64,000 nt of DNA from Arenicellales bacterium (GCA_965206345.1 OZ242211.1:1791808-1855807), one strand, 5' to 3'. Shown: positions 262 through 46,680, counted from the first letter of the stretch. The notes: generated from the letters alone by a model not told the origin. Program-made: numbers and translations.

Positions 262-1803
262 TTAATGCCAGATATCAGGCATTTCGCCTTTACGTTTTTC
301 CATGAAAGCCTGCAATTCCTCATCGATTGCTGGATCCATTGGGGGCATTTCATATTCCGCTAGCATGCGTTTCCATTTCACATTTGCCCGTTGGGCAATG
401 TCCGTTGAACCTTCTTCCACCCACTGCTCATAGGGCGGGGTTGTGAAGAGCTCAGACTCATAAAACGCATTTTCATAGTGTTCCAGGGTATGAGCGCTGC
501 CAAAAAAGTGACCGCCCGGTCCAACCTCTTCGAACGATTCGGTTGTAAACTGGTCGGGTTCAAGTGAGATGCCTTTCACCATTGTATGGAGCGCTCCCAA
601 GTAGTCTGCATCGATGACAAGTTTTTCGTAACTGACGGTCAGGGCACTCTCCATCCATCCAGCGGCATGCAGCACAAAGTGTGCGCCGCAAAGTATTGCT
701 GCATTGAGTGAATTGACACTTTCGTTAGTTGAGTGAGCATCAACGCAGGGTGAACTGGTAAAACCTCCGCTACAGCGAAGTGGCACACCGAATCGTCTGG
801 CAATCTGACCAACAACATAAGAAGAAGCGACCGATTCTGCCGTGCCAAAGGTTGGCGAACCTGCGCGCAAATTGACGGTTGTAATGAAATTGCCAAAAAC
901 TGCAGGCGAACCGGGACGCACCAGCTGACCGAGCGCTACACCGACCATGACTTCAGCAAGTGACTGAACGGTAGCAGCTGCAATCGTGACAGGTCCGGTG
1001 GCACCACTCAGTACAAATGGAACAACCACGGGGCACTGATTCGCTTCTGCATAAGCCCGCAAGGCGCCAGACATGGCACCATCATAAACCAATGGAGAAT
1101 TCATGTTGATATTGCCGCTGATCACACAGTGGCTGTCGACAAATTCTTCGCCAAACAGAATCCGAGCCATTGCAATGGAATCCAGAGCTCTCTCTCGGGT
1201 GGTAACCGATCCCATGAAGGGCATATCGGAATAACGCATGTGAGAGTAGACCATGTCGAGATGACGTTTGTTGACTGGCAGTTCAACCGGTTCACAAACG
1301 GTTCCGCCGGAGTGATGCAGCCATGGTGACATGTAGGCGAGTTTGACAATATTCTGGAAATCTTCGATCGTACCGTAGCGACGGCCGCGGTCAAGGTCCG
1401 ATACAAATGGAGAGCCATAAGCCGGTACGAAAACGACATGTTTACCACCCAGTCTGGCAGAGCGCTGTGGGTTTCGGCCATGCATTACAAATTCGCTGGG
1501 CACTGTTTTGATCAAGCTGCGTAAATAACCCCGATCAAATCGTACGCGTTCCCCCTTGACATCAGCACCACCCGCCTGTTTCCAAATCTGCAGCGCTTCA
1601 TCATCGCCCCTAAACTCGACTCCAACTTCTTGAAGCAGTTCTTCTGTCTTGTCTTCAATCAGCTCAAGACCTTCCTCACTCATCATATCGTAAGGCGGGA
1701 TTTCTCTTACCAGGCCAGCATTGATGACTGGCGCGCTGGTATGCAGACTTCGCCGCTTGAGTCGCCCGCGGCTAGCTACGGTTGTCTGAGGTGCAGTTGC
1801 CAT
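262..1803 (-). CDS. MttB-superfamily methyltransferase, non-pyrrolysine member (substrate unknown; glycine-betaine/methylamine type)
   Basis: Uninterrupted 513-aa ORF whose length and overall sequence pattern I recognise as MttB family. There is no in-frame TAG. Confidence 0.75.
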   Translation of the reverse strand: MATAPQTTVASRGRLKRRSLHTSAPVINAGLVREIPPYDMMSEEGLELIEDKTEELLQEVGVEFRGDDEALQIWKQAGGADVKGERVRFDRGYLRSLIKTVPSEFVMHGRNPQRSARLGGKHVVFVPAYGSPFVSDLDRGRRYGTIEDFQNIVKLAYMSPWLHHSGGTVCEPVELPVNKRHLDMVYSHMRYSDMPFMGSVTTRERALDSIAMARILFGEEFVDSHCVISGNINMNSPLVYDGAMSGALRAYAEANQCPVVVPFVLSGATGPVTIAAATVQSLAEVMVGVALGQLVRPGSPAVFGNFITTVNLRAGSPTFGTAESVASSYVVGQIARRFGVPLRCSGGFTSSPCVDAHSTNESVNSLNAAILCGAHFVLHAAGWMESALTVSYEKLVIDADYLGALHTMVKGISLEPDQFTTESFEEVGPGGHFFGSAHTLEHYENAFYESELFTTPPYEQWVEEGSTDIAQRANVKWKRMLAEYEMPPMDPAIDEELQAFMEKRKGEMPDIWH

Positions 1804-2061: not shown

Positions 2062-3768
2062 ATGATCGCTGATTTAAACAACTTAACGACTCGTCGACGC
2101 GGCTATGCGAGACCCACTTTTCTGCCTAAGGGCCGTCAGGTCGACCCGCAACACAAGGTTCAAGTTCAACAGCTGTTGGGAACCGCTGAACTTCGACGGG
2201 ACTTGCTGATCGAATATTTACACCTGATTCAGGACCATTTTGGTTGCCTGCATTCTGATCATTTGGTCGCTCTCGCATCGTTGATGCGCCTTCCGATGGC
2301 AGAAGTCTACGAGACCGCGACTTTCTATGCGCATTTTGACGTCATTACTGAAGCCGACAAACTACCACCACCGATAACTATTCGAGTCTGCGACAGCCTG
2401 ACCTGCGAGATGTTCGGCGCGCAGGAACTGATGGCTCAGTTATCGAAAAAATCGAACTCAGAGGTGCGTGTCGTGCGAGCACCCTGCATGGGGCGGTGCG
2501 ACAAGGCTCCGGTCGCGGAAGTCGGTCACAATCATATTGATCACGCAGACGTCAACGGCATCTGCAGGGCAATTGAATCAAAAGATCTTCATCCCGTCAT
2601 CCCACAATATGAAAGTTTTGAAGATTATCGCGCACAAGGTGGATATCAACTGCTTGAGCAGTGTCACCGCGGAGACAGAAGCGCTGATGAATTGGTGTCC
2701 ATTCTCCAGGATTCTCCGCTTCGAGGTCTAGGTGGCGCAGGGTTTCCGACTGGATTTAAGTGGAAAATCGTACGCGGTTATTCAGGTCCCAGGCTGATGG
2801 CAGTTAATGCGGATGAAGGTGAACCGGGCACATTCAAGGATCGATACTATCTTGAACACGAACCGCACCGTTTTCTGGAAGGAATGGCAATAGCAGCCTG
2901 GGTTGTCGAAGCTGAAACGGTTTACATTTACCTGCGTGATGAGTATCCAGCAGTGCGTGAAATATTGCTCACTGAAATTGAAAATGTGAGGCAAGCGGGA
3001 CTTTTTGGTAATTCCAGAATTGAATTGCGACGTGGGGCCGGCGCCTACATTTGTGGTGAAGAGTCGTCGATGATTGAGTCAATCGAGGGTAAGCGCGGAT
3101 TGCCTCGGCATCGTCCACCTTACGTTGCTGAGTGCGGAATCTTTGGACGACCGACACTGGTGCAGAATGTCGAAACGCTTTACTGGGTACGCGACATAGT
3201 CGAAAGAGGTGTTGACTGGTTTGCAAGTCACGGCCGGAACGGTGGGAAGGGTCTTAGAAGCTACTCTGTTTCTGGACGAGTTGCGAAACCGGGAGTAAAA
3301 CTCGCACCCGCTGGAGTCACGGTACGTGAACTGATTGATGAATTTAGCGGCGGCATGCTGCCTGGACACCAATTCAAAGCCTATTTACCAGGTGGCGCTT
3401 CGGGTGGAATTCTTCCGGCATCGATGGACAATTTACCACTCGATTTTGGCACTCTGGATCAATATGGGTGCTTTGTCGGCTCGCATGCTGTTGTTATCTT
3501 GAGCGATCAGGATAATATGAAGGATGTCGCTCTAAATCTTATGCGGTTTTTTGAAGACGAAAGCTGCGGTCAGTGTACACCATGCCGAGTCGGTACTGAA
3601 AAGGCGGTCAAACTGATGGAACGCGATATTTGGCAGGAGGGTGTTCTGAATGACATCAGCCAGGCGATGACTGATGCCTCGATCTGTGGATTGGGTCAAG
3701 CCGCAGCGAATCCGCTGCTATCGATCATCAAATATTTTGAGGATGATTTGACATGCAAAACGGTGTGA
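2062..3768 (+). CDS. fdsB: NAD-dependent formate dehydrogenase diaphorase subunit, fused NuoE-like (FdsG) + NuoF-like (FdsB)
   Basis: The N-terminal 2Fe-2S module has CDSLTC...CMGRC. The NuoF-like part has GLGGAGFPTG, GEPGTFKDR and ESCGQCTPCR. It overlaps the downstream catalytic subunit by 16 nt. Confidence 0.85.
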   Translation: MIADLNNLTTRRRGYARPTFLPKGRQVDPQHKVQVQQLLGTAELRRDLLIEYLHLIQDHFGCLHSDHLVALASLMRLPMAEVYETATFYAHFDVITEADKLPPPITIRVCDSLTCEMFGAQELMAQLSKKSNSEVRVVRAPCMGRCDKAPVAEVGHNHIDHADVNGICRAIESKDLHPVIPQYESFEDYRAQGGYQLLEQCHRGDRSADELVSILQDSPLRGLGGAGFPTGFKWKIVRGYSGPRLMAVNADEGEPGTFKDRYYLEHEPHRFLEGMAIAAWVVEAETVYIYLRDEYPAVREILLTEIENVRQAGLFGNSRIELRRGAGAYICGEESSMIESIEGKRGLPRHRPPYVAECGIFGRPTLVQNVETLYWVRDIVERGVDWFASHGRNGGKGLRSYSVSGRVAKPGVKLAPAGVTVRELIDEFSGGMLPGHQFKAYLPGGASGGILPASMDNLPLDFGTLDQYGCFVGSHAVVILSDQDNMKDVALNLMRFFEDESCGQCTPCRVGTEKAVKLMERDIWQEGVLNDISQAMTDASICGLGQAAANPLLSIIKYFEDDLTCKTV

Positions 3769-6515
3769 GTATTAGTTTCAAACTTGACGGAGTCGAAGTC
3801 GCGGCATCTGCCGACGAAACCATTTGGCAGGTTGCCAATCGGCATCAGAATCAACTGCCACATCTTTGTTATTCGCCAGAGCCTGGATATCGGGCAGATG
3901 GCAATTGTCGGGCATGCATGGTAGAGATTGAAGGTGAGCGGGTTCTCGCTGCCTCGTGTATTCGTAAACCTACCGAGGGAATGAAGGTCAAAACCAATAG
4001 CCAACGGGCAAAGTTATCCCGCCAATTGGTATTCGAAATGCTGGCCGCTGACCAACCCAACCAGGAAATTGCTCATGACCCTGATTCACGTTTCTGGCAA
4101 TGGACTCGCGAGGTGCAACCTGAGATGGGACGAATGCCGCAACGAAGTTCCCCTTCCCCTGATCGAAGCCATTCAGCAATGGGCGTGTATCTTGACGCGT
4201 GTATTCACTGTAATCTTTGTGTACGAGCCTGTCGAGAAGTCCAGGTCAACGATGTCATTGGCATGGCCTACCGGGGACATCATTCTAAAATTGTGTTTGA
4301 TTTTGATGATCCGATGGGCAACAGTACCTGTGTTGCTTGTGGTGAGTGTGTGCAAGCCTGCCCCACCGGCGCTCTAATTGAGTCAGCAGTGATTGACAGT
4401 GCCGGTGTCAACAGACACATTCCGGTTAACGAAGTCGAAAGTGTCTGTCCCTACTGCGGCGTGGGTTGCCAGATCAAATATCAAATCAATGAAGACAAGA
4501 TTGTTGCGGTGCAGGGTAAAGATGGTCCTGCAAACCATAACCGACTTTGTGTCAAAGGCCGATTCGGGTTCGACTATGTTCGTCATCCACACCGTTTGAC
4601 CAAACCGCTTATTCGGCGAGATGGGGTCAATAAGCATGCGGATGATAGGGTTGATCCTGCCGATCCCTCAAGCCACTTTCGTGAGGCAGAATGGGACGAA
4701 GCGTTGGATTTGGCAGCAGAGGGATTTAGAAAAATTCTAGAAAAATCCGGCTCAAAAGGTCTTGCGGGATTCGGGTCCGCCAAAGGCTCAAATGAGGAAG
4801 CCTATCTTGTTCAAAAGCTCGTCCGAACCGGATTTGGCACCAATAATGTTGATCACTGTACCCGGTTATGTCACGCGTCTTCGGTCGCGGCGCTTCTGGA
4901 AGGTATTGGTTCTGGTGCGGTCACCGCACCATTCACTGCATGTGAGGATTCTGACGTCGTTATCGTCATCGGTGCCAATCCAACCGAAAACCATCCTGTG
5001 GCCGCGACATTCTTCAAACAAGCCAGGAAACGAGGCAGCGAACTAATTGTGATGGACCCGCGCGGGACTGTCTTGTCTCGACATGCCACTCACATGCTGC
5101 AATTCAATCCCGGTACCGATGTTGCACTTCTCAATGCCATGCTCAATGTCATCATTGAAGAGGAACTCTATGACACAGAATATGTTGGCCGATTTACCGA
5201 AGGCTTCGAAAATCTGAAGCAACACATCAAACCATTCACTCCAGAAGAGATGTCCTTGATTTGCGGTATTGATGCTGAAACATTGCGTTCTGTTGCGAGA
5301 AAGTTCGCCAACGCGGAACGTGGCATCATATTTTGGGGAATGGGTATCTCACAGCATACACACGGAACCGACAATGCGCGCTGTCTGATAGCACTGGCAA
5401 CAATTACCGGTCATGTCGGTCGTCCCGGAACAGGTCTTCACCCGTTGCGCGGTCAGAATAACGTGCAGGGTGCTTCTGACGCCGGCCTGATCCCAATGGT
5501 CTATCCGGACTATCAGGCTGTCGATGTGGAAAATATTCGCGCCAAATTTGAAGATGCCTGGGGCACCAGCCTCGACCCGCAAAAGGGGTTAACGGTGGTG
5601 GAAATTATGGATGCGGTTTATGCAGGAGAAATACGCGGCATTTATGTAATGGGCGAAAATCCAGCGATGTCGGATCCTGATGTCCAGCATGCGCGCGAAG
5701 CCTTGGCACGACTCGATCATCTGGTCGTGCAGGATCTTTTTGTAACCGAGACTGCGTTCCATGCTGATGTTGTGTTGCCTGCTTCGGCTTGGCCTGAAAA
5801 AGACGGTACGGTCACCAACACCAATCGTCAGGTTCAAATGGGTCGAAAGGCACTGTCACTTCCTGGGGATGCGAGACAGGACTGGTGGATCATTCAAGAA
5901 ATAGCTCGTCGATTGGGGCTCGATTGGAGTTATTCAGGTCCGGACGAAGTTTATGCGGAGATGGCCGAGCTGATGCCGTCACTTGACAATATCTCCTGGC
6001 AACGGCTGGCAGATGAGAGCTCAGTTACCTATCCCTGTGATGCGTCGGATGTCGCCGGCAACGAAATCGTGTTTGGTGATGGATTTCCGACTGGTACCGG
6101 GCGCGCAAGACTTGTACCAACAACTTATACGCTCCCTGACGAGCAGCCAGATGATCGGTATCCAATGATTTTGACTACTGGCCGACAACTGGAGCATTGG
6201 CATACGGGGTCGATGACCCGTCGTAGTGCAATCCTGGACGAGATCGAACCGGAAGCCGTGGCCAGTCTTTCACCGAGTCAGTTAGAGATGCTTGAAATTC
6301 AGCCGGGTGAGATGATCAGCATTGAGACTCGACGCGGCAAAATTGAAATTATGACTCGAAGTGATAGTGCGGTACCTGAAGGAGTTGTCTTCATCCCGTT
6401 CTGCTATACCGAAGCTGCGGCCAATCTTTTGACCAATCCCGCTTTGGACCCGATCGGTAAGATCCCGGAGTTTAAGTTTTGCGCGGCGCGCGTTGACAAA
6501 TTATCAGTCGTGTAA
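3753..6515 (+). CDS. fdsA: formate dehydrogenase catalytic (molybdopterin) subunit
   Basis: 920 aa. N-terminal Fe-S modules are CRACMVE, CIHCNLCVRAC, CVACGECVQACP and CPYCGVGC. A molybdopterin oxidoreductase body follows, with an active-site Cys (HCTRLCHASSV) rather than Sec. Confidence 0.9.
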   Translation: MQNGVSISFKLDGVEVAASADETIWQVANRHQNQLPHLCYSPEPGYRADGNCRACMVEIEGERVLAASCIRKPTEGMKVKTNSQRAKLSRQLVFEMLAADQPNQEIAHDPDSRFWQWTREVQPEMGRMPQRSSPSPDRSHSAMGVYLDACIHCNLCVRACREVQVNDVIGMAYRGHHSKIVFDFDDPMGNSTCVACGECVQACPTGALIESAVIDSAGVNRHIPVNEVESVCPYCGVGCQIKYQINEDKIVAVQGKDGPANHNRLCVKGRFGFDYVRHPHRLTKPLIRRDGVNKHADDRVDPADPSSHFREAEWDEALDLAAEGFRKILEKSGSKGLAGFGSAKGSNEEAYLVQKLVRTGFGTNNVDHCTRLCHASSVAALLEGIGSGAVTAPFTACEDSDVVIVIGANPTENHPVAATFFKQARKRGSELIVMDPRGTVLSRHATHMLQFNPGTDVALLNAMLNVIIEEELYDTEYVGRFTEGFENLKQHIKPFTPEEMSLICGIDAETLRSVARKFANAERGIIFWGMGISQHTHGTDNARCLIALATITGHVGRPGTGLHPLRGQNNVQGASDAGLIPMVYPDYQAVDVENIRAKFEDAWGTSLDPQKGLTVVEIMDAVYAGEIRGIYVMGENPAMSDPDVQHAREALARLDHLVVQDLFVTETAFHADVVLPASAWPEKDGTVTNTNRQVQMGRKALSLPGDARQDWWIIQEIARRLGLDWSYSGPDEVYAEMAELMPSLDNISWQRLADESSVTYPCDASDVAGNEIVFGDGFPTGTGRARLVPTTYTLPDEQPDDRYPMILTTGRQLEHWHTGSMTRRSAILDEIEPEAVASLSPSQLEMLEIQPGEMISIETRRGKIEIMTRSDSAVPEGVVFIPFCYTEAAANLLTNPALDPIGKIPEFKFCAARVDKLSVV

Positions 6516-6613: not shown

Positions 6614-7525
6614 TTACTCGCCCAACTTGTCGCCAGCTTTGATTTTGTATTCCCCAGCGAATTCCTGCGCGGAGACCTTACCCGCATTACCGCGTAAGCG
6701 TTGCACTACAATTTCACCACCTTTGGCAGCGATGTGGATGCCCTGGTCAGTAATGTCTGTCACAGTGCCGGGGGCACTGTTGGACTTGCTGGATTTGTAG
6801 CAGTCGTAGACTCTAACGACGCCACCTCGATAAATCGTCCAGGCACCAGGTTGTGGATTGGTTCCTCGAATCAGGTTGTACACCTGATCTACCGGTTTAT
6901 TCCAATCAATGATCGCATCATTCTTTCCACACCAGCCCTCATAACTGCCAGCGTTTGGATTTTGTGGAATTCTTGGCGCGGTGCCATTTTTCACCATGTC
7001 CAACGCTTCAATCATGGCATCAACGCCAAGCGGAAACAATTTGTTGAAATAAAGGCTTCCTAGGGTGTCGTCAGGTTTGATATTAACCTTCTTTTGCAAC
7101 AGAATTGGTCCTGTGTCCAAGCCATCATCCGGCCAGAATATTGTTAATCCCGATTTTCGCTTACCCTGAATAATCGGCCAGTTAATGGAACTTGGCCCCT
7201 TGTGGTCCGGCAGCAGGGAAGGGTGGTATTGAATCGATCCATACTTTGGAATGTTCAGAACGTAGGATGGAACGATCAGTGTGACGTATGCCATGATGCA
7301 AAGATCGGCATTGTGCGAACTCATCGAATCCGCAGCTTCCTGAGTTTTGTAAGACGCCGGCTGCAGCACAGGTATGCCTACCTGTTCAGCCGCCTGTTTT
7401 AGTGGGTCGGGCCTGCTTCCGCTATCCGGTGCGCAATAGACAGCGACCACATTTTCACCCCGTTCCAACAGACGTTTGAGGACAGCCTCTCCGAACGCCT
7501 GCTGACCGTGAACTATTAATCTCAT
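6614..7525 (-). CDS. stand-alone formyltransferase-fold protein resembling the N-terminal 10-formyl-THF hydrolase domain of 10-formyl-THF dehydrogenase (ALDH1L1)
   Basis: 303 aa. Motifs are SIQYHPSLLPDHKGPSSINWPII, FWPDDGLDTGPILLQ, GTAPRIPQ and YEGW. The YHPSLLP.H.G pattern is the FDH-N type rather than the Fmt type (NVHGSLLP). It is the last gene of the oxc-frc operon, 11 nt after frc. Confidence 0.8.
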   Translation of the reverse strand: MRLIVHGQQAFGEAVLKRLLERGENVVAVYCAPDSGSRPDPLKQAAEQVGIPVLQPASYKTQEAADSMSSHNADLCIMAYVTLIVPSYVLNIPKYGSIQYHPSLLPDHKGPSSINWPIIQGKRKSGLTIFWPDDGLDTGPILLQKKVNIKPDDTLGSLYFNKLFPLGVDAMIEALDMVKNGTAPRIPQNPNAGSYEGWCGKNDAIIDWNKPVDQVYNLIRGTNPQPGAWTIYRGGVVRVYDCYKSSKSNSAPGTVTDITDQGIHIAAKGGEIVVQRLRGNAGKVSAQEFAGEYKIKAGDKLGE

Positions 7526-7536
7526 CTTGAATCTCC

Positions 7537-8778
7537 TTAAACTGCACCCGCCTCTCGGAGCGTTTCAATCTCACTTTCGTTGTAGCCGAGCACATCGGTC
7601 AAAATATCGGTGGTGTGTTCACCAAGCAACGGTGAGCGTTTTACCTCAGTTGGAGAGTTTGATAGCTTGATCGGGTTGCCGACCGTACGGTATTTCCCGC
7701 GTTCTGGGTGATCAACCTCGACTACTGTGCCAGTTTTTATCAGGGCTTCTTCGTTAATCAATTCTTCAATTGACAGTATTGGACCGCAGGGGACATTCAG
7801 CGGGTTAAGAGTTTCCATGACTTCGAATTTGGTTTTTGTTTTGGTCCACTCTTCGATCATCGCAAAACACTGATCCAATTTTGGCAGTCGAACCTGAGGG
7901 GTCGACCATTCAGGATCATCAATCAAATCCTCACGTCCAATGACACGCATCAGGTGAGCCCAGCCTGGAGGTTGAATGATGACGTACACGTAGTCATTCG
8001 GTCCGCCGGGTTTGGTTTTGACTGCCCAGCCGGGTTGTCCGCCGCCCGATGCATTTCCGCTTCTCGGTACGGAACTTCCAAACTCACCATTCGGGTATTG
8101 AGGGTATTCAGTCAACGGTCCGTGCTGCAGGCGCTGCTGATCGCGGAACTTAACGCGGCACAGATTCATCACACCGTCCTGCATGGCGCATTCCACTCGC
8201 TGGCCGAGCCCGGTTGATTGTCGATGCACCAATGCAGCCAGAATACCGATTGCCAGATGAAGTCCGGTACCTGTATCACCGATCTGTGCCCCAGTCACTG
8301 TTGGCGGACCGTCATCAAAACCAGTGGTGCTGGCGGAACCACCTGTGCATTGAGCGACATTTTCGTAAACCTTGCAATCCTGATACGGACCTTTTCCAAA
8401 GCCTTTGACGGACGCGTAAATGATTCCGGGGTTGATTTCATGAATTTTTTCCCAGGGAAACCCCATTCGATCCAAAGCTCCTGGAGCGAAATTTTCTACG
8501 AGTACATCACAACAGCGAAGAAGACGTTCAAAAACTTCTTTGCCCTTTTCGTTTTTGGTGTCAAGAGTAATTGAGCGCTTATTGTGGTTCAGCATCGTAA
8601 AGTAAAGACTGTCGACATCGGGAATGTCTCGCAGTTGACCGCGAGTCGCATCACCGACACCGGCCCGTTCGACTTTAATTACATCTGCTCCAAACCATGC
8701 GAGCAGTTGGGTGCATGTCGGACCCGACTGAACATGTGTCATGTCCAGGATTCGAACGCCATCCAAGGCTTTACTCAT
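7537..8778 (-). CDS. frc: formyl-CoA:oxalate CoA-transferase (family III CoA transferase)
   Basis: 413 aa. It is near-colinear with Oxalobacter Frc as I recall it ([74 protein letters not shown]). Confidence 0.9.
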
Positions 8779-8815
8779 TAAAGTTTCTCCCCAAATTTAA
8801 TTTGAATACAGAAAA

Positions 8816-10549
8816 TTACTTATACATCGTTTGAGCCTTGGTCCCGGGAGCATATTCAGAGGGATCAACCCAGATGTTGATCACAGCAGACAGTCCTGAT
8901 TTGTGGACTTGCTCTCTTGCGCGAAGTAGGGCAGGTTCAATCTGACTGGGATCGTGTACTTCTTCACCATAGCCACCCAGCATTTCGGCAAAACGGGAAA
9001 ATGGTACATCACCCAACAGGTTGCCGACATCTCCGCGTTCGGCCCCGTATTTGGCAATTTGACCATATCTTATCTGGTTCATCGCACTGTTGTTCCCGAT
9101 CACTGCAATATAGGGTGCACCAAATCGATTGGCTGTTTCCATATCGAAAGCCGTCATGCCAAATGAGCCATCTCCGTAATAACAGAGCACTTCTTTGTGC
9201 GGATGGGCAAGTTTGGATGCCATGGAAAAAGATGTTCCGACTCCAAGTGTTCCAAGCGGTCCGGGGTCCATCCAGTGTCCCGGTGTACGCGGCTGCACGG
9301 CTTGAGCGGATATGGTTACGACATCTCCACCATCGCCAATGTAAATTGTGTCTTCAGTGAGGAAATTGTTAATCTCCCAAGCCACCCGATATGGATGAAT
9401 GGGGTTGCGGTCCGACATAAACAGCGGCATGAGTTTTTGTGTGCGCTCATGTTCTTCCGCTCGCAGATTGTTCAGCCAGTTTTTTCGTTCTGTGCTATTG
9501 GCGGCTGTTTTACCTCCTGCTGCTTCGACTACGGCACTAAGGATAGTGCCAGGATTACCAACAAGTCCGAGCGATATGTCGCGATTCTTGCCAACTGTTC
9601 GGTAGTCCATATCAATTTGAACAACAGTTGCCTTGGAACGAAGCCTTCTTCCGTATCCCATACGAAAATCAAATGGCGTTCCCACAATCAGAATCAGATC
9701 TGCATTGTTGAATGCAGATCGTCGTGTTCGATGAAAATGGTTGACATCATTCGGAGGCAGAGTACCGCGCGCGGAGCCGTTAAAGTATGCCGGCAAATTG
9801 AAGGCACGAATGAATTCAATGGCGGCATCGGTTGAACCGGAAGTCCAGACTTGGGTGCCAAACAGGACACAGGGAGTTTTGGCTTTGGTCAGGAGACTGG
9901 CCAACTTGTCAATATCTACCGGATCGCCTAGTGCACCAGTAGAAGCACGGTAAGCGTTTGGACTTGGAATTCGAGCATCTCTCAGATCAATCTCTGCATC
10001 AAGAATGTCGCGGGGTATTTCAAGATACGATGGCCCAGGTGCGCCATTGTGACTTTCCCTGCAAGCCATGGAAACCATGTCTGCTATGCGCTCGGTACTA
10101 CGCACGCCTGCAGAGAATTTAGTGATGGGTGCCATCAAATCAACATGTGGTAGGTCCTGCAAAGATCCCATTTTGTGCTGGCTGAGTGCGCCTTGGCCAC
10201 CAATGTGCAAAACGGGACTTTCAGCTCGAAATGCATTGGCAATGCCAGTGACGGCATTGGTACAGCCAGGACCAGCTGTGGTAACTACACAACCAGTTTG
10301 GAGTGTCTGTCGAGCGTACCCATCTGCAGCATGTGCTGCGACCTGTTCGTGTCGGACATCAATGATGCGTATGCCTTCGTCAATGCAGCCATCGTAGATG
10401 TCAATGATATGTCCGCCACAAAGTGTAAAAATCGTGTCAACACCCTCATTTTTCAGGGCTTTGGCGACCAGATGACCGCCTGTAATTATTTCCGAATCCG
10501 CAACGACTACCGGTTGCTCTAAGGTCTCGTTTGCTACTGCTTGAGCCAT
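8816..10549 (-). CDS. oxc: oxalyl-CoA decarboxylase (ThDP-dependent)
   Basis: The ThDP motif is YYGDGSFGM...GNNSAMN. Length is 577 aa from the ATG at 10549, which follows GGGGGAAG. The ORF-track start at 10615 adds 22 unlikely residues. Confidence 0.9.
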   Translation of the reverse strand: MAQAVANETLEQPVVVADSEIITGGHLVAKALKNEGVDTIFTLCGGHIIDIYDGCIDEGIRIIDVRHEQVAAHAADGYARQTLQTGCVVTTAGPGCTNAVTGIANAFRAESPVLHIGGQGALSQHKMGSLQDLPHVDLMAPITKFSAGVRSTERIADMVSMACRESHNGAPGPSYLEIPRDILDAEIDLRDARIPSPNAYRASTGALGDPVDIDKLASLLTKAKTPCVLFGTQVWTSGSTDAAIEFIRAFNLPAYFNGSARGTLPPNDVNHFHRTRRSAFNNADLILIVGTPFDFRMGYGRRLRSKATVVQIDMDYRTVGKNRDISLGLVGNPGTILSAVVEAAGGKTAANSTERKNWLNNLRAEEHERTQKLMPLFMSDRNPIHPYRVAWEINNFLTEDTIYIGDGGDVVTISAQAVQPRTPGHWMDPGPLGTLGVGTSFSMASKLAHPHKEVLCYYGDGSFGMTAFDMETANRFGAPYIAVIGNNSAMNQIRYGQIAKYGAERGDVGNLLGDVPFSRFAEMLGGYGEEVHDPSQIEPALLRAREQVHKSGLSAVINIWVDPSEYAPGTKAQTMYK

Positions 10550-10650
10550 TATTCTTCCCCCGGATTTTGTGAATATTTTGGCATTTTTCTGAATTGTATA
10601 CAATATACCATACACGTGTTTATCAAGTCAACAGCTTTGGACACACCGTA

Positions 10651-12901: not shown

Positions 12902-14806
12902 ATGTCCACTCAGGATAGATCTCTAACATTAATCAAATGGATGAAATTGACCGTGGGCCTTTCCTTAACCAGTTTACTATTTGGCTGTGTCTCAGATGAA
13001 TTTGGAAAGCAGCAAGTTCAAATAACTCCTCCCACTCAAGAGCAGTCAGGCGACTTGGATTTTGAAGCCAGCCTGGATGAGATACTAACACAGTTAAGGG
13101 GGGATTTACACCAGAGAGAACACAGTTCCAGGAATCAGATTGCTGAGAACAATGGGTTGAGTAATGGGAAGATTACTGTAGCCCTACCCCATGCGGATGT
13201 GAAATCCAATCAAGATGTGCATGTGCAATACCAGACAACATTTGGAGGGAACCATGGGCATGGTGCCCGCAAGGAGAACTATTCGTATTCAGTTGATTCG
13301 TACCAGTATTCAGAGACTCGGGTCAATTCAGAGATTTATGGTGGGTCTTTGACTTCTGCCGAATTTTCGGAAAAGATTCGGCTTCCCACCTCCTTTGAAG
13401 AATGTGAGAAAACTCCAGAAAACCAAATCCCTAAGCCAGTCATCCATATTCATGACAAATCTGTCTGGACGTTTTCCATACATCATGCTCAATTTGATAG
13501 GCTTGATCGTGATCAGTTGATCCCAGTATTCACAATGAAGCACTCTTCCGGCCGCCCCGTTCGAAGTGTCGTAAAGATGGATTCACGCATTCGGTCGGGA
13601 TCCAATGGTCAAAGTCTTGCGAACCTCAAATTCTCCTGGTATTACGACCCGCCCATTGGTTCCAGGATAAGTAATCAGCTGATTGAGGGGAATCATTTTG
13701 ATATGGTTGTTGATACAGTGGGTGAACATGTTGTGGCCCTTCGCATGGAAGATGAGAGCGGAGCCTGTGCCGTTCGAGCGGTGAAATTTCTCTCTACAGC
13801 CAATGTGCCTTATCAGGTCCCGCGAGTTTCCAGGAAGGCTCTCTATCAAGAAGCAGGGTTTGAATTTGATCTAGAGACTGCTTATCTGGATCAAATTCAG
13901 GGGAGGGCGTCTTGGAAACACTCTCAGGGAGAGGGGGTGACAATTGCTTATCTGGATTCCGGCTTGAACTACAACCACCCCTTGGTGGCTCACAATGCGA
14001 AGGTCAATGAGGGAGAGATTCCTGGCAATGGTTTAGACGACGATCAGAATGGCAGGGTGGATGACTACACCGGCTATGATTTTTTTCACGACGATCCCTA
14101 CCCGTTTGATGACAGCGGTCACGGGAGCCAAGTCACAGGTCTGGGGGTTTCGGCGTTGGGTCTGGCTCAAAATGCGCGGGTGCTTCCGGTGAAGGTTTCA
14201 GGTATGGGTACCCTTTCCATAGAGACTTTGATTTCGGCGATCCATTACGCTGTGGATTCCGGGGCACAAATTATCAATGTATCCCTTGGTTCCAACTCGC
14301 ATCGCTTCGATCACCATCTGCGAGTGGCGGCTGAGAATGTCATTGCGTATGCTAAAGCGCATGGTGTGTTAATCGTGGCGGGGGCAGGAAATGATGGTCG
14401 ACAAAATCCAGATTTCTTTCCAGCGAGTTTCCCATCCGACAATATCATAACCGTGGGAGCTGTCGATGGAAATGGTTTGCCTGCTCCTTACTCAAACTGG
14501 GGCGTTCAAATTGATATTGCGGCTCCAGGGGGAACCGACGCAGATATGATAAGTTCCATCTACATGTATAACCCCAAATCATACTTGTTCTCTAAAGCCA
14601 CAGGAACCTCGCTTGCGACTTCCCTTGTGTCTGGGTTGGCGGCCCAAATACTCAGCATCAATCCTCGACTCTCTCCTGATGAGGTAATTGATATCATCAT
14701 ATCTACAGGAGACGTCTCTCCCGCTCTTCAGGGGAAGGTCAAATCCGCTAGTGTGATCAATGCTCTAAATGCAGTTCTGGCGGCAAAGAAAACATTGACC
14801 CAATGA
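12902..14806 (+). CDS. S8 subtilisin-family serine protease, lipoprotein, with a ~330-aa uncharacterised N-terminal region
   Basis: Lipobox LTSLLFGC. The catalytic triad contexts are AYLDSGLNYNHP (Asp), DDSGHGSQVTG (His) and ATGTSLATSLVSG (Ser). The Asn context is VAGAGNDG. A PKD/Ig-like stretch precedes the protease domain. Confidence 0.85.
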   Translation: MSTQDRSLTLIKWMKLTVGLSLTSLLFGCVSDEFGKQQVQITPPTQEQSGDLDFEASLDEILTQLRGDLHQREHSSRNQIAENNGLSNGKITVALPHADVKSNQDVHVQYQTTFGGNHGHGARKENYSYSVDSYQYSETRVNSEIYGGSLTSAEFSEKIRLPTSFEECEKTPENQIPKPVIHIHDKSVWTFSIHHAQFDRLDRDQLIPVFTMKHSSGRPVRSVVKMDSRIRSGSNGQSLANLKFSWYYDPPIGSRISNQLIEGNHFDMVVDTVGEHVVALRMEDESGACAVRAVKFLSTANVPYQVPRVSRKALYQEAGFEFDLETAYLDQIQGRASWKHSQGEGVTIAYLDSGLNYNHPLVAHNAKVNEGEIPGNGLDDDQNGRVDDYTGYDFFHDDPYPFDDSGHGSQVTGLGVSALGLAQNARVLPVKVSGMGTLSIETLISAIHYAVDSGAQIINVSLGSNSHRFDHHLRVAAENVIAYAKAHGVLIVAGAGNDGRQNPDFFPASFPSDNIITVGAVDGNGLPAPYSNWGVQIDIAAPGGTDADMISSIYMYNPKSYLFSKATGTSLATSLVSGLAAQILSINPRLSPDEVIDIIISTGDVSPALQGKVKSASVINALNAVLAAKKTLTQ

Positions 14807-18141: not shown

Positions 18142-18741
18142 GTGCGTATTGTGTCTGACGACGGAATCATCTCACTGGTCGATTGGCGTGGCCGCAAGTA
18201 CCTCACTGCGGTCGAGCGGCAGCGTTTTGTGAAGGTGGCACAAACCGATCCAATTCCTGCGGTCCAGACTTTTACGCTGGCTCTAACCTACACCGGTTGC
18301 CGGATATCCGAGGCGCTGGCGGTGCGCCATTGCGACGTTGACCTGGATAACCTGGCAATTCGATTCAAAACGCTAAAACGCCGCCAGGATGTGTGGCGGG
18401 AGGTGGCGGTTCCCCAGGATCTGATTCGAGCCATCGATCTGGTACACTCGGTACGTGCAGCGCAAAGCCGACCGCGAAGAGCGGCCCGAAGACTGTGGAA
18501 ATTCAGTCGGTCAACCGCTTCGAGACACGTCAAGCGTTTAATGGCCTCGGCTGATATCGAGGGGCCTCAGGCGTCGGCTAAAGGATTGCGCCATGGCTTT
18601 GGTGTAGCCGCCATCGAGGCAGGTGTGCCGCTGCCGACCATCGCTGCGGTGCTTGGGCATGCCAATATCGAAACCACTGCAATTTACACCACGGCCATCG
18701 GCATGGAAGCGCGCGAACAGCTGGCCAGGATGTGGCGGTAG
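18142..18741 (+). CDS. compact tyrosine recombinase (catalytic domain only, FimB/FimE size class)
   Basis: 199 aa. Motifs are TGCRISEALAV (Arg I), GLRHGFGVAAI (H-x-x-R) and LGHANIETTAIYT (His + catalytic Tyr). There is no N-terminal arm-binding domain. Two 60-nt spot counts give 53% and 60% GC, against about 40% in the flanking cargo. Confidence 0.85.
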   Translation: MRIVSDDGIISLVDWRGRKYLTAVERQRFVKVAQTDPIPAVQTFTLALTYTGCRISEALAVRHCDVDLDNLAIRFKTLKRRQDVWREVAVPQDLIRAIDLVHSVRAAQSRPRRAARRLWKFSRSTASRHVKRLMASADIEGPQASAKGLRHGFGVAAIEAGVPLPTIAAVLGHANIETTAIYTTAIGMEAREQLARMWR

Positions 18742-26859: not shown

Positions 26860-28436
26860 AGTCGGCCCTGAATAAACCAATATTCGCCAGTATATCATTG
26901 TTACCATTGACTATTGTCATCATTTGAACTGTTCTGAAATTGCCGGAAACGATATAATTGCCCATCATTTCCCTGCAATTTCGAGAATAAAAATGAAGCC
27001 TCACTCAGCCCGCAATGAAGACCAGTCCGAGCTGTTCCGAAGCCGACTTGACAGCCAGATCAACATGAACCATGAACTGGTTCGGCTGTCATCCCTGATC
27101 GACTGGAGCGTGTTCGATGACCGGTTCGGCACCCTGTATCACGCCGACAGGGGCAGTCCTGGAAAACCCACCCGTCTGATGGTGGGACTGCTGTATCTGA
27201 AGCACATTCACAGGCTGTCCGATGAGCAGTTGGTTCATGGCTGGCTGGAAAATCCGTACTGGCAGTACTTCTGTGGCGAGAGTCACTTTCAGACCGAGTG
27301 GCCGATTGATCCGAGTTCGCTGACGCGCTATCGCCAGCGCATTGGTGACAGTGGCTGTGAATGGCTGCTGCAGCAGACGATACAGGCGGGAATGAAAAGT
27401 GGTGCGGTTCGAAAGTCGCATCTGAAGCGGGTGACGGTGGACACCACGGTGCAGGAGAAGGCGGTGAGATTTCCGACCGACGGCAGGCTGCTGAACCGGT
27501 CCCGGGAACGTCTGGTGAAGCTGTGTCATCAACACGGTGTGGGGCTGCGTCAGAGTTATGCGCGGGTGGGTCCGCGGTGTCTGATTCGTGCCAGTAACTA
27601 CGCGCATGCGCGCCAGAGCCGGCGGATGCGCCGCCAGATTCGAAAGCTGCACACCTTTCTGGGACGGGTGGTGCGCGACATTGAACGGAAGATCAGTGAT
27701 GACGATCAGCTGCAGCAGATCTTTGCTGATGAGCTGGCGATGGCGAAAAGAGTGCTGGCACAGAAAAAGGACAGTTCCAACAAGCTTTACAGTCTGCATG
27801 CACCGGAGGTGGAGTGCATCAGTAAGGGCAAGGCGCACAAACGCTATGAGTTTGGCGTCAAGGCCAGCATTGCGGTTACAAACCGCAGCAGTTTCGTGGT
27901 CGGTGGTCTGGCCCTGCCGGGCAATCCGTTTGACGGTCATACGCTGAAAACAGCCCTGGATCAGGTTCGCAGGTTAGGTGGACAGCGCATCGAGGAGGTG
28001 TATGTGGACCGCGGTTACCGCGGTCACGATGAAACGGACAGTGCGGTGTACATCTCGGGGCAGAGGCGCGGGGTGACGGATCGAATCAGACGGTGCATGA
28101 AGCGTCGTCAGGCGATCGAGCCGGTCATAGGACATCTGAAGCAGGATGGCTGGCTGGGGCGCAATCACCTGAAGGGCACTGAAGGTGACAGTGTGAATGT
28201 GCTGCTGAGCTGTGCCGGACACAATCTGCGTCTGATCCTGAAGCGATTGAGGGGCCAGTGTGCCCGTATTTTTTGTCGCTCGGTTCATGGCCGGATTATT
28301 CGGCTCAAACGGGTACTGCCGGGTGTGAATTACCGTTTTCTGGCGCTGAGCGCAGCATAAGGGCTTTGCTGCTTGAGAATGCCCGACGCTGATCGCTTCG
28401 AATATCGACTGAAAACCGGATTTTTCAGGGCCGACT
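26860..28436 (+). mobile_element. IS5-family (IS4/IS5 superfamily) insertion sequence, 1577 bp
   Basis: Perfect 13-bp terminal inverted repeats AGTCGGCCCTGAA / TTCAGGGCCGACT. They are flanked by the direct repeat AAATT (26855-26859 and 28437-28441). Spot GC is about 55%, against about 35-40% in the surroundings. Confidence 0.85.
26993..28360 (+). CDS. IS5-family DDE transposase
   Basis: 455 aa from the ATG at 26993. The N-terminal region is ELFRSRLDSQINMNHELVRLSSLIDW...PGKPTRLMVGLLYLKH. The C-terminal part has VDRGYRGH...RQAIEPVIGHLK, which is the Y-2-R-3-E-6-K signature. Confidence 0.85.
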   Translation: MKPHSARNEDQSELFRSRLDSQINMNHELVRLSSLIDWSVFDDRFGTLYHADRGSPGKPTRLMVGLLYLKHIHRLSDEQLVHGWLENPYWQYFCGESHFQTEWPIDPSSLTRYRQRIGDSGCEWLLQQTIQAGMKSGAVRKSHLKRVTVDTTVQEKAVRFPTDGRLLNRSRERLVKLCHQHGVGLRQSYARVGPRCLIRASNYAHARQSRRMRRQIRKLHTFLGRVVRDIERKISDDDQLQQIFADELAMAKRVLAQKKDSSNKLYSLHAPEVECISKGKAHKRYEFGVKASIAVTNRSSFVVGGLALPGNPFDGHTLKTALDQVRRLGGQRIEEVYVDRGYRGHDETDSAVYISGQRRGVTDRIRRCMKRRQAIEPVIGHLKQDGWLGRNHLKGTEGDSVNVLLSCAGHNLRLILKRLRGQCARIFCRSVHGRIIRLKRVLPGVNYRFLALSAA

Positions 28437-29725: not shown

Positions 29726-31104
29726 TGCGTGACGGGGGTCAAAAAAAGAGCGGCGTATCTGGTTAAATGTAAGTTGAACAAATTTACAAACCAACCAGAG
29801 AGGTACGCCACTAATGGATAAGGATAACGTAATTTCATTTCAGACGCACGATTATTTTGAAGATCCGCTGACCGAAGCGATACGGGACGGGGCGAGGAAG
29901 CTGCTGGCCTGTGGATTGGAGGCTGAGGTGAGTGAGTTTCTGCGGCGCTATGAAGATCAGCGCGGCGAGAACGGGCTGCGGGCGGTGGTTCGCTCTGGTT
30001 ACCAGCCCGAGCGACAGATTCAGACCGGGGTTGGACCGGTGACGGTGAAGGTTCCGAAGGTTCGCTCGAACACTGCGGAGCCGGTGTCGTTTCGTTCCAG
30101 TCTGATTCCGCCGTATGTGCGAAAGAGCCGGTCGGTGGAAGCTTTTGTGCCGTGGCTGTACCTGAAGGGTGTCAGCAGCGGCGAGATGGCTGAGGCGATG
30201 AAAGTGCTGCTGGGTGCACCGGCTGAGGGTTTTTCGGCCTCCACCGTCACTCGGCTGACGCACGAGTGGCAGGCACAGATGCGGGAGTGGAAGCGGCGCG
30301 ACCTGAGTCAGGAACGGTTTGCATACATCTGGGCCGATGGGATTTACTGCGGATTGCGGGCTGAGGATGTGAAGCTTTGCGTGCTGGTGGTGATCGGGGT
30401 CAACGAACACGGGGAGAAGAAGTTTCTGGCGATTGAAGACGGGCAGCGGGAGTCGACCGAGAGTTGGCGCGAGGTGTTTCGGGATCTGAAACGGCGCGGC
30501 TTTGAGTCGCCCAGACTTGCAGTAGGCGATGGTGCACTGGGATTTTGGGGTGCACTCGATGAGCTGTATCCGGATACTGTGCATCAGCGCTGCTGGGTGC
30601 ACAAGATGTCGAACATCCTGAATCGGCTGCCCAAATCGGTGCAGATGCGCGCCAAGCCGGCGCTGCAGGAAATCTGGATGGCCGAAACCCGGGCGGATGC
30701 CAATCAGGCGTTTGATCGATTTATCGACACTTACCAGGATCGATATCCGCAGGCGGCAGACAATCTGCTCAGGGATCGAGAGGAGCTGATGGCGTTTTAT
30801 GATTTTCCGGCCAGACACTGGCAGAGCATTCGCACCACCAATCCGATTGAGTCGACCTTTGCCACGATCCGGCATCGGACCCGGCGCTCCAAGGGGTGTC
30901 TGAATCGAAACGGCATGCTGTGCATGATGTTCAAGCTGGCTCGGTGTGCGGAAACACGATGGCGCCGATTGCGCGGATTCAGGCAATTGGGACAGGTGAT
31001 TGAAGGGGTAAAATTCAAAGACGGAATCGAGGTAAACCAGTTATGTGACCAGGTCGCCGCTTGATGGCCACAAAACCGTCACGCACTAGATTTACCAATA
31101 ACTC
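29707..31104 (+). mobile_element. IS256-family insertion sequence, 1398 bp
   Basis: The terminal inverted repeats are GAGTTATTGtcAAATCTAGTGCGTGACGG on the left and the reverse complement GAGTTATTGgtAAATCTAGTGCGTGACGG on the right. A 9-bp direct target duplication CGACAAATG lies at 29698-29706 and 31105-31113. The element is high-GC relative to the host. Confidence 0.9.
29814..31064 (+). CDS. IS256-family (Mutator-type) transposase
   Basis: 416 aa. The sequence LEAEVSEFL...RSGYQPERQIQTGVGPVTVKVPKVR...YIWADGIY...QRCWVHKMSNILNRLPK...FPARHWQSIRTTNPIES is typical of the family. Confidence 0.9.
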   Translation: MDKDNVISFQTHDYFEDPLTEAIRDGARKLLACGLEAEVSEFLRRYEDQRGENGLRAVVRSGYQPERQIQTGVGPVTVKVPKVRSNTAEPVSFRSSLIPPYVRKSRSVEAFVPWLYLKGVSSGEMAEAMKVLLGAPAEGFSASTVTRLTHEWQAQMREWKRRDLSQERFAYIWADGIYCGLRAEDVKLCVLVVIGVNEHGEKKFLAIEDGQRESTESWREVFRDLKRRGFESPRLAVGDGALGFWGALDELYPDTVHQRCWVHKMSNILNRLPKSVQMRAKPALQEIWMAETRADANQAFDRFIDTYQDRYPQAADNLLRDREELMAFYDFPARHWQSIRTTNPIESTFATIRHRTRRSKGCLNRNGMLCMMFKLARCAETRWRRLRGFRQLGQVIEGVKFKDGIEVNQLCDQVAA

Positions 31105-40262: not shown

Positions 40263-40341
40263 AGCCTATCGACTGAAGATCCAGTTCAGATCATTTTGAT
40301 CTAAAGTGCTTGCGATAAGCTCAGCGCATCACTTGGCAAGG

Positions 40342-41025
40342 ATGATGATCACCTTGAATGCGGTGATCATCTGTTTTTGTCTGTCTGAAACGGTGCATGC
40401 TTCAACTTCGACTCCTCCTAGAGCGCCGGGTTGGGGTGAGTTAGCTTATGAACCGCCGGCACCAGGAACTTATGAGTTACCGGTGATAAAACTTGCAACG
40501 GATGGAGAGGTCTTGACCAGCGATAGCTCTCCATCCAATCTATTTGATCTGATGTCGGGAAAAATTGTTTTTTTGAGTTTTATTTTTACTCGGTGTACTG
40601 ATGAAAATGGTTGTCCTCTTGCGAATGCTGTTCTCTACAAGGTGCAGGCCCGTCTGAACCAGAACCCTGACTTGGCGAACAGGGTTTCTCTGCTTACCGT
40701 GTCATTTGACCCGGAATATGACACACCCGAAGTACTTTCGGCGATGAAAAACTTTTACGGTGAGGGATCGGCGAGTTGGCAGTTTCTGACAACCCGTAAC
40801 ACAGATGCATTGCAGCCAATCTTAAGTGGTTACGGGCAATACCCGGTGCGAGTTGATCACCATCAGGCACACAACGAGGGAGTTGTCGAATACATTCATC
40901 TGCTTCGTGTCTATCTCATCGACCTTCAAAAGCAGATCCGTAATATTTACAGCGTTTCTTTTCTGCATCCTGACATTCTGATGAACGATCTGGAGACGCT
41001 GCTGATGGAGTCGCTCACCAACTAG
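40342..41025 (+). CDS. SCO1/SenC-family copper chaperone/thiol-disulfide protein
   Basis: Signal peptide MMITLNAVIICFCLSETVHA. A thioredoxin-like region follows, with FIFTRCTDENGCP and VSFDPEYDTPEVL. Confidence 0.65.
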   Translation: MMITLNAVIICFCLSETVHASTSTPPRAPGWGELAYEPPAPGTYELPVIKLATDGEVLTSDSSPSNLFDLMSGKIVFLSFIFTRCTDENGCPLANAVLYKVQARLNQNPDLANRVSLLTVSFDPEYDTPEVLSAMKNFYGEGSASWQFLTTRNTDALQPILSGYGQYPVRVDHHQAHNEGVVEYIHLLRVYLIDLQKQIRNIYSVSFLHPDILMNDLETLLMESLTN

Positions 41026-41034
41026 TAAGTGCCA

Positions 41035-46616: not shown

Positions 46617-46680
46617 ATTGAACAATGATGAGTTGTGGCACCTACTTGATAAAATTTCACACCTTGCAAAAAGTGCAGGA

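Follow-up and report, generated by a model that had tools for sequence, protein, structure and literature searches.

In full-length 10-formyltetrahydrofolate (10-formyl-THF) dehydrogenase (FDH; ALDH1L1 in animals), the formyl group is accepted by a 4'-phosphopantetheine thiol (PMC4388273; PMC8748788; PMC6802093), and the "hydrolysis" of 10-formyl-THF by the isolated N-terminal domain (FDH-N or FDH-Nt) requires an added thiol (PMC4388273, section 4.2). CoA has been described as the acceptor of two other formyltransferases: LctF was shown in vitro to convert 10-formyl-THF and CoA into formyl-CoA (PMC11730586), and HypX's N-terminal domain (HypX-N) has been proposed to formylate CoA from 10-formyl-THF (PMC6802093). 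As for oxalate metabolism, the half-life of formyl-CoA is 1.9 h, and a separate priming enzyme, YfdE, is needed by E. coli (PMC3720670). Here we describe an operon on the minus strand (positions 6,614 to 10,549) of a 64,000-nucleotide stretch of DNA from an Arenicellales bacterium, hereafter the window, whose last gene encodes a stand-alone formyltransferase, referred to as FT. The three genes, in the order of transcription, are the following, where ThDP stands for thiamine diphosphate, HACL for 2-hydroxyacyl-CoA lyase, and OXC for oxalyl-CoA decarboxylase.

8816 to 10549, minus strand: ThDP enzyme of a non-canonical clade of the HACL/OXC family (Pfam TPP_enzyme_N/M/C), a probable oxalyl-CoA decarboxylase analogue forming formyl-CoA
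7537 to 8778, minus strand: Frc, formyl-CoA:oxalate CoA-transferase (TIGR03253, PRK05398)
6614 to 7525, minus strand: FT, a stand-alone FDH-N-like formyltransferase of 303 amino acids (Pfam Formyl_trans_N and Formyl_trans_C)

An earlier note on this DNA had described the trio as co-directional, and indeed the three minus-strand open reading frames are separated by gaps of 37 and 11 nt only. We infer, with a probability of roughly 50%, that FT is a reversible 10-formyl-THF:CoA formyltransferase coupled to the Frc cycle, which would catalyze the reaction 10-formyl-THF + CoA ↔ formyl-CoA + THF and would tie the formyl-CoA/oxalyl-CoA pool of the cycle formed by Frc and the decarboxylase to the folate one-carbon (C1) pool. 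This activity is proposed by analogy, because an FDH-N-type enzyme is encoded, in many of the operons, between a formyl-CoA transferase and a formate-THF ligase (Fhs), and CoA is the suggested acceptor because the FDH N-domain uses a pantetheine thiol and HypX and LctF use CoA. CoA bears the same pantetheine arm as the carrier thiol of FDH.

The motifs quoted for FT in the earlier note were all found (YHPSLLPDHKG, LDTG, GTAPRIPQ, YEGW, and PGAW). In a phmmer search against the PDB, the FDH N-domains 4qpd, 1s3i, and 7rlu scored 212 to 213 bits, followed by the best methionyl-tRNA formyltransferase (Fmt) with 156 bits, ArnA with at most 92 bits, HypX with about 50 bits (49.6), and PurN with about 47 bits, while in BLASTP zebrafish FDH-Nt was 41.6% identical over 245 amino acids and E. 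coli Fmt 34.9% identical. Furthermore, FT reached 158.7 bits on the fmt model TIGR00460 (cut-off, 201.5) and 22.1 bits on the PurU model TIGR00655 (cut-off, 285.95), and it has no ACT domain. Thus, the claim that FT is FDH-N-like and neither an ordinary Fmt nor a PurU is borne out (212 versus 156 bits, with both equivalog cut-offs failed). The AlphaFold model of FT has a predicted local distance difference test (pLDDT) score of 89, and the top Foldseek match is 4qpd (E value, 3.5e-33; template modeling [TM] score, 0.89), with FDH-Nt structures occupying ranks 1 to 5. The PP-binding and Aldedh domains, which give the long relatives P0185 and P0203 the architecture of FDH, are absent from FT, which its sequence identifies as a stand-alone FDH-N-type formyltransferase. 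Its residues His101, Ser103, Asp137, and Tyr195 correspond to His106, Ser108, Asp142, and Tyr200 of FDH, of which the first three are catalytic and the last is involved in product release (PMC4388273).

The source annotations take FT for a methionyl-tRNA formyltransferase, that is, a divergent or second Fmt. Both proteins share the same two-domain fold, and Fmt comes close behind FDH-Nt in Foldseek (E value, 1e-30 versus 1e-33), with TM scores of FT to Fmt structures of 0.86 to 0.92. However, several features make this explanation very improbable. FT remains under the TIGR00460 cut-off (159 versus 201.5 bits), and it is devoid of a loop insertion in the N-domain: this loop counts 21 residues in 31 of 31 Fmt-like representatives and about 15 in FT and FDH. 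In particular, the loop of E. coli Fmt spans approximately residues 34 to 49, RPAGRGKKLMPSP, where FT has 15 residues, 6 fewer. Schmitt and colleagues are said to have found in 1998, in the Fmt-tRNA complex, that this loop contacts the acceptor stem of the initiator tRNA. Moreover, from the Asn108, His110, and Asp146 set of E. coli Fmt, FT keeps the His and the Asp, while Gln99 replaces the Asn; Gln is found here in all 34 FT-clade sequences, whereas 30 of 31 Fmt-like ones have Asn. FT is also not found beside def, and the copy of the marine strain La 6, QEW23307.1, is annotated fmt_2, a second copy. The net charge of the C-domain, taken as a proxy of tRNA binding, showed no clear difference (+1.5 versus +2.6). 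The failed cut-off, the short loop, and the replaced Asn led us to reject FT as an Fmt paralogue.

A neighbor-joining tree was built from 98 sequences, comprising the 50%-identity representatives of the full HMMER scan and the studied loci, with E. coli Fmt, E. coli ArnA, and rat and zebrafish FDH-Nt as references. The phylogenetic separation from Fmt anticipated in the earlier note held, as a clade (82 to 87% bootstrap) unites FT and FDH-N with further stand-alone proteins of about 305 amino acids and leaves out the Fmt-like sequences; the branching within this clade, including a specific sister relationship of FDH-N to FT, was not resolved. A literature search on the characterization of Rv0118c and on bacterial ALDH1L1-N homologues returned nothing relevant.

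Relatives of FT were scanned in one genome per species and found in at least 595 genomes. The FT-centred loci considered here are the best 80 of these (53 to 93% identity), 74 of which have enough upstream DNA to be informative. They belong to Arenicellales, SUP05/Thioglobus, Rhodospirillales, Kiloniellaceae, Entotheonella, Dehalococcoidia, Methylomirabilota, Rokubacteria, and Longimicrobiales, and include a metagenome-assembled genome (MAG) of Arenicellales, L001, which is syntenic with the window (93 to 98% amino acid identity). That the linkage between FT and frc would extend to other genomes was a prediction which proved correct, since 30 of the 74 informative loci, from several phyla, have Frc next to FT, and the Frc-linked loci span Gammaproteobacteria, Alphaproteobacteria, and Gemmatimonadota (Longimicrobiales). 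Frc is mostly directly upstream of FT and in the same direction, and a ThDP enzyme is adjacent to FT or one gene away, which couples FT genomically to the enzymes of formyl-CoA. Because the FTs linked to Frc are scattered across the FT tree, it is possible to conclude that the FTs represent one orthologous family in which the operon linkage has been kept in many lineages; the recurrence of the arrangement across phyla is far from what chance would produce. In the reciprocal sample of 71 Frc-centred metagenome loci, whose Frc is 70 to 81% identical to that of the window, FT occurs in 17, paired with either of two decarboxylase types.

Divergent members (48 to 52% identity) keep the linkage as well, namely, on a plasmid of strain La 6 and in L171, and P0127 (52% identity) has TctCBA as neighbors, along with a ThDP enzyme and a class III CoA-transferase. 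Strain La 6 is a cultured, conjugable marine methylotroph of the Roseobacter group (Paracoccaceae), whose plasmid pLA6_002 (CP031587.1; L164/L165) shows the gene order GntR-oxc-frc_5-fmt_2-fhs_2-Usp-TctCBA. The surrounding island (53 to 90 kb of the record) adds fds, ppc, two sucCD-like pairs, a PanE-like (ketopantoate-reductase-like) gene, glyA2, hprA_2, folD_2, a metF-like gene, folA, and a "soluble hydrogenase 42 kDa subunit" gene, which we take as a serine-glyoxylate aminotransferase. The genome paper of the strain makes no mention of oxalate (PMC5934484).

Additional observations concern the FT genes of other lineages. In SUP05/Thioglobus and TMED61 MAGs (L007, 8224 to 10906; L008, 2908 to 5611), the ThDP enzyme directly precedes FT with a gap of about 85 nt, TctCBA transporter genes lie upstream, and no Frc is present within the locus. 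FT genes of lineages without the Frc linkage repeatedly have a pterin-4a-carbinolamine dehydratase gene as a neighbor, directly upstream in L020, L034, L041, and L042 and also in L168 (172 to 453) and L169 (6204 to 6482), and an alpha/beta-hydrolase gene is often nearby. In an Entotheonella DD2 MAG (L068, 10001 to 10912), the FT gene contains an in-frame stop codon, indicating a pseudogene or an assembly error.

The position after FT is often occupied by a gene for Fhs (925 bits; cut-off, 652), which lies directly downstream in 15 of the 80 FT-centred loci. In particular, 13 of the 30 loci linked to Frc show this order, compared with 0 of the 44 unlinked loci with upstream DNA, and among the Frc-centred loci it is present in 5 of 17 with FT versus 0 of 54 without. 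The corresponding Fisher p-values (1e-6 for the FT-centred and 5e-4 for the Frc-centred loci) are indicative only, because the loci share phylogeny and independence is overstated, which detracts from the support that they lend to our assignment. The connection with the THF pool suggested in the earlier note is thus reinforced by Fhs. Of the two options offered there, hydrolysis of formyl-THF to feed formate dehydrogenase turns out to be the weaker.

As for the two upstream genes, the frc label given in the earlier note is well founded, as the window protein scores 669 bits on TIGR03253 (cut-off, 504) and 702 bits on PRK05398 (cut-off, 442) and carries the SGGGQ loop together with an IGDTGTG motif; a glycine-rich loop is a criterion for Frc (PMC3720670). 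The oxc label, in contrast, had to be abandoned, since the ThDP enzyme reaches 219 bits (218.9) on the OXC model PRK09259, whose cut-off is 557, and the hallmarks of OXC are missing. In fact, the active site of MeOXC relies on a Y134/E135 pair and on a C-terminal lid in which S568 acts with Tyr497 (PMC8411744). The window enzyme shows GSLQD in place of the GDYEE of OXC, so that the Tyr-Glu pair is absent, and ends with APGTKAQTMYK, without the GTESG(R/H) lid. It shares 24 to 25% identity with both E. coli OXC and the canonical OXC encoded in locus L019; the latter scores 1021 bits, above the OXC cut-offs. In NCBIfam, the window enzyme matches PRK05858 best (448 bits; cut-off, 587), and its best PDB match is the actinobacterial 2-hydroxyacyl-CoA lyase 7pt3 (258 bits, with 128 bits for O. 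formigenes OXC); prokaryotic HACL/HACS enzymes are also among its best solved relatives. These comparisons assign the gene to a separate, non-canonical clade of the HACL/OXC family, whose members make or use formyl-CoA.

The window-type clade is 67 to 94% identical across phyla (L002 to L026, L084 to L152). Among the Frc-centred metagenome loci, Frc follows a window-type enzyme in 27 of 71 and a canonical OXC in 30 of 71, and among the FT-centred genome loci it is preceded by the former in about 24 and by the latter in 5. Because the window-type enzyme takes the same operon slot as canonical OXC, before an orthologous Frc, that of the window is a predicted, probable non-canonical oxalyl-CoA decarboxylase. 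The clade probably represents an unrecognized second type of oxalyl-CoA decarboxylase or, alternatively, uses another 2-oxo- or 2-hydroxyacyl-CoA.

In the proposed mechanism, Frc and the decarboxylase would interconvert formyl-CoA and oxalyl-CoA, so that the thioester would be recycled and never created, and it would be lost through the lability of formyl-CoA and whenever oxalyl-CoA is reduced to glyoxylate. Fresh formyl-CoA could be obtained from 10-formyl-THF via FT, Frc would then move the CoA to oxalate, and the irreversible decarboxylation would pull the FT-Frc sequence forward. Priming or replenishing the cycle is probably the likelier role of a CoA formyltransferase in this operon. Where Fhs is also encoded, it would contribute the step formate + ATP + THF → 10-formyl-THF, and Frc the step formyl-CoA + oxalate → oxalyl-CoA + formate, and the sum of the Fhs, FT, and Frc reactions would be oxalate + CoA + ATP → oxalyl-CoA + ADP + Pi. 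It is tentatively hypothesized, at a level of confidence well below that for FT itself, that the three enzymes form an ATP-driven oxalate-activating cycle in which formate and THF are mere catalytic carriers.

Since the reaction should be near equilibrium, FT may also move the formyl group from formyl-CoA to folate. The same chemistry could then serve chiefly in the opposite direction (formyl-CoA + THF → 10-formyl-THF + CoA), draining formyl-CoA and providing activated C1 units for the serine cycle or purines without ATP cost, or even allowing ATP to be recovered by Fhs running in reverse. This direction would suit the SUP05/TMED61 loci, where the ThDP enzyme is followed by FT without Frc and formyl-CoA must be consumed, as well as the La 6 operon, which lies amid the serine-cycle and folate genes glyA2, hprA_2, folD_2, and ppc and the supposed serine-glyoxylate aminotransferase; in addition, a thioester is expected to be somewhat more energy rich than the N10-formyl bond. 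However, FT would compete for formyl-CoA with the Frc of its own operon and empty the cycle without any other evident input of thioester, and no ATP would be gained overall with respect to Frc plus Fhs if oxalate then needs to be reactivated. The presence of Fhs only where FT is present fits both directions equally. On balance, we regard a predominantly draining role as rather unlikely.

Several observations weigh against a CoA formyltransferase that primes the Frc cycle. The modeled fold can neither tell the possible acceptors of FT apart nor settle its family, and the catalytic residues deduced from the alignment cannot tell the acceptors apart either. HypX-N is distant from FT (about 50 bits; TM score, 0.69; 18 to 20% identity), and the bootstrap of the FT clade within the FDH-like clade is 22%. 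FT is absent from 54 of the 71 Frc loci, i.e., it is accessory, and about 55 to 60% of the FT loci have neither Frc nor a decarboxylase within 10 kb and show unrelated neighbors; a broader folate role of the family is possible. Moreover, priming makes little sense in SUP05, where no Frc is adjacent, and the reverse direction, equally possible on chemical grounds, agrees better with the gene order in SUP05.

The opposite flank of FT contains genes of formate and methyl group metabolism, while a promoter-like site lies upstream of the operon.

2062 to 3768, plus strand: fused gamma-beta (NuoE-like plus NuoF-like) subunit of an NAD-linked formate dehydrogenase (2Fe-2S_thioredx, Complex1_51K, NADH_4Fe-4S)
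3753 to 6515, plus strand: FdsA, formate dehydrogenase alpha subunit (TIGR01591, 749 bits; cut-off, 666)
262 to 1803, minus strand: non-Pyl MttB-family methyltransferase (PF06253, 691 bits)
10602 to 10631, minus strand: promoter-like site upstream of the operon (TTGACT, 18-nt spacer, TG-TATATT)

The fdsBA genes had been correctly recognized: FdsA passes the TIGR01591 cut-off, and its 568-residue partner is a NuoE-like plus NuoF-like fusion. The pair (2062 to 6515) is convergent with FT. As for the MttB homologue, the reading frame of 513 codons is uninterrupted and matches PF06253, but its linkage to the cluster is lineage specific, being limited to the window and L001; no MttB gene adjoins the cluster beyond L001 in the FT-centred and Frc-centred loci.

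It could be supposed from this neighborhood that FT is a functional analogue of PurU, a hydrolase freeing formate and THF and feeding the formate dehydrogenase next to it. PDB entries call the isolated N-domain of FDH a hydrolase, fdsBA lies beside FT in the window and is co-directional after FT in L002, MttB adjoins the cluster in the window, and the many FT genes without frc nearby would fit a general folate housekeeping task. However, the activity of FDH-Nt depends on an added thiol (PMC4388273), FT scores 22 bits on the PurU model and has no ACT domain, and fds genes are near frc in many loci whether FT is present or not. Since fds accompanies frc equally without FT, its adjacency to FT is explained by the formate that Frc, and not FT, produces. 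A hydrolase placed directly before Fhs, as FT is in 13 of the 30 Frc-linked loci, would establish an ATP-wasting futile cycle, and hydrolysis leaves the repeated linkage to Frc and to two decarboxylase types unexplained. A hydrolytic function is therefore unlikely in our view.

A formyltransferase acting on a different thiol (that of a holo-carrier protein or one of low molecular weight) or on an amine should also be considered, as the formyl acceptors of relatives in the fold include carrier-protein thiols (FDH), sugar amines (ArnA, WbkC), and tRNA-bound methionine. Other stand-alone FDH-like proteins are found in unrelated catabolic clusters (L166), and FTs that are not linked to Frc are often beside alpha/beta-hydrolase or pterin-4a-carbinolamine dehydratase genes. 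Nevertheless, no carrier-protein, sugar-nucleotide, or nonribosomal peptide synthetase/polyketide synthase (NRPS/PKS) gene was present among the recurrent neighbor clusters of the FT-centred genome loci, and the recurrent partners of FT all use formyl-CoA or formyl-THF, so that an acceptor other than CoA or water appears decidedly improbable for this family. The protein of L166 (6001 to 10842) is P0139, a stand-alone FDH-N-like protein (41% identity) in a different catabolic cluster, together with a TRAP transporter, a LUD-domain protein, an aminotransferase, a short-chain dehydrogenase/reductase, a 2-hydroxyacid dehydrogenase, and a separate aldehyde dehydrogenase. Because P0139 sits in such an unrelated context, the wider FDH-like clade would comprise several functions.

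Two further types of genes were noticed around frc. A ketopantoate-reductase-like gene, 52 to 57% identical to that of La 6, lies directly after Frc in L098, L101, L110, and L142, which contain no decarboxylase or FT, and the two genes may constitute an assimilation pair with an oxalyl-CoA reductase; no association of FT with the PanE-like putative oxalyl-CoA reductase was found, and Frc-then-PanE-like pairs occur without FT. Oxalate loci, whether they contain FT or not, also repeatedly carry a SucCD-like ADP-forming CoA ligase pair; these include L001 (17306 to 19352), L009, L010, L014, L019, L025, L028, L035, L123, L139, and L158, as well as L102 and L112, where the pair directly follows frc. 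It scores above the succinate-CoA ligase beta cut-off and just under the malate-CoA ligase cut-off, and it could be a second route of thioester supply.

With regard to the boundaries of the operon, the ATG of the ThDP enzyme at 10549 is preceded by the ribosome-binding site GGGGGAAG, while the GTG at 10615, farther upstream, is an unlikely start; the longer reading frame would overlap the sole good promoter-like site (10631 to 10602), located 53 nt upstream of the ATG. This site is consistent with the start of the operon and no more, the number of promoter-like sites in the region not being above chance (5 found versus 4.4 expected from shuffling). An intrinsic terminator was sought between FT and fdsA, and no stable structure was detected (z = 0.16). 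Directly upstream of the operon promoter, a stretch of lower GC content (approximately 11000 to 31100; 42 to 47%) with many reading frames without a Pfam match is probably a mobile or variable region; it holds an S8 peptidase (12902 to 14806), a truncated phage-type integrase (18142 to 18741), and DUF772/DDE (26924 to 28360) and Mutator-family (29814 to 31064) transposases. Farther on, a methanethiol-oxidase-like SBP56-family protein is followed by SCO1/SenC and a MauG-like di-haem cytochrome c peroxidase (38877 to 42399), a gene order known from mtoX clusters. The window also encodes an ankyrin-repeat protein (45633 to 46799), a eukaryote-like type frequent in symbionts. Its glycyl-tRNA synthetase is a fused alpha-beta protein with 1021 amino acids (52847 to 55912).

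Full-text searching of the accessible literature found no paper linking frc or oxc with a formyltransferase. The suggestion in the earlier note that such a step had not been characterized needs to be narrowed, since the formylation of CoA has been shown for LctF and proposed for HypX, while its use in oxalate metabolism does appear to be undescribed, as does the size of the misannotated family. In fact, members of the FT family, present in at least 595 species genomes of bacteria from the sea and from soil, systematically bear the label of Met-tRNA formyltransferase. To our knowledge, the question of how bacteria other than E. coli start the Frc-OXC cycle, or sustain it during the assimilation of oxalyl-CoA, is largely unaddressed. 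If our assignment is correct, a folate-to-CoA formyl shuttle would answer the thioester balance of the cycle, give a function to a widespread misannotated family, and, in symbionts as well as in marine Gamma- and Alphaproteobacteria, join oxalate turnover to the C1 metabolism of folate. It would also mean that the use of a pantetheine thiol was already present in a bacterial relative of the ALDH1L1 N-domain, and synthetic pathways of formyl-CoA elongation based on HACL/OXC carboligases would gain a natural enzyme that generates formyl-CoA. Should the three-enzyme cycle also be true, it would be a new route to a CoA thioester via folate-bound formyl and the missing thioester source of bacterial oxalotrophy, especially when assimilatory, and the ALDH1L1 N-domain of animals would have its free-living bacterial counterpart in the FT family. 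Strain La 6 is a ready experimental system.

Compared with the known formyltransferases, FT shares a common core with PurU, which acts on 10-formyl-THF, but PurU has an ACT domain and no Formyl_trans_C, and FT the reverse. With Fmt, FT shares Formyl_trans_N and Formyl_trans_C, the 10-formyl-THF site, and about 35% identity, and it differs in the absence of the tRNA-recognition loop insertion and of the catalytic Asn and in its genomic context. The likeness to YfdE, an acetyl-CoA:oxalate CoA-transferase of E. coli, is a functional analogy: it is an accessory of the frc-oxc operon proposed as a thioester primer in the absence of formyl-CoA (PMC3720670), but it is an unrelated class III CoA-transferase drawing on acetyl-CoA, whereas FT would draw on 10-formyl-THF. 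No YfdE-like second CoA-transferase was found in FT-positive or FT-negative loci. HypX-N (HypX/HoxX; 6j0p) has the formyltransferase fold and the proposed CoA formylation that we suggest for FT (PMC6802093), but only HypX carries a fused enoyl-CoA-hydratase-like decarbonylase domain holding CoA and a modified catalytic triad, and its role is the synthesis of the CO ligand of [NiFe]-hydrogenase. LctF, a stand-alone Fmt-like protein, has the very reaction proposed for FT (PMC11730586) and would resemble it in this respect; it belongs to the PKS/NRPS lactacystin cluster of Streptomyces and feeds an acyltransferase domain, while FT belongs to an oxalate operon. The FDH N-domain (4qpd, 1s3i, 2bw0, and 7rlu) is the best match of FT in both sequence and structure, with the same short loop, the common motifs IxYHPSLLPxH[KR]GxSxINW, FWxDxGLDTGPxLLQ, GxAPR, and PGAW, and the same catalytic His, Ser, and Asp and Tyr200. 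FDH has a 5-residue insertion, LKGKA, which FT does not have, and Ile, Cys, Ser, or Val in place of the invariant Gln of FT. Only FDH is fused to a PP-binding carrier and an aldehyde dehydrogenase, whereas FT is a stand-alone bacterial protein encoded in oxalate operons.

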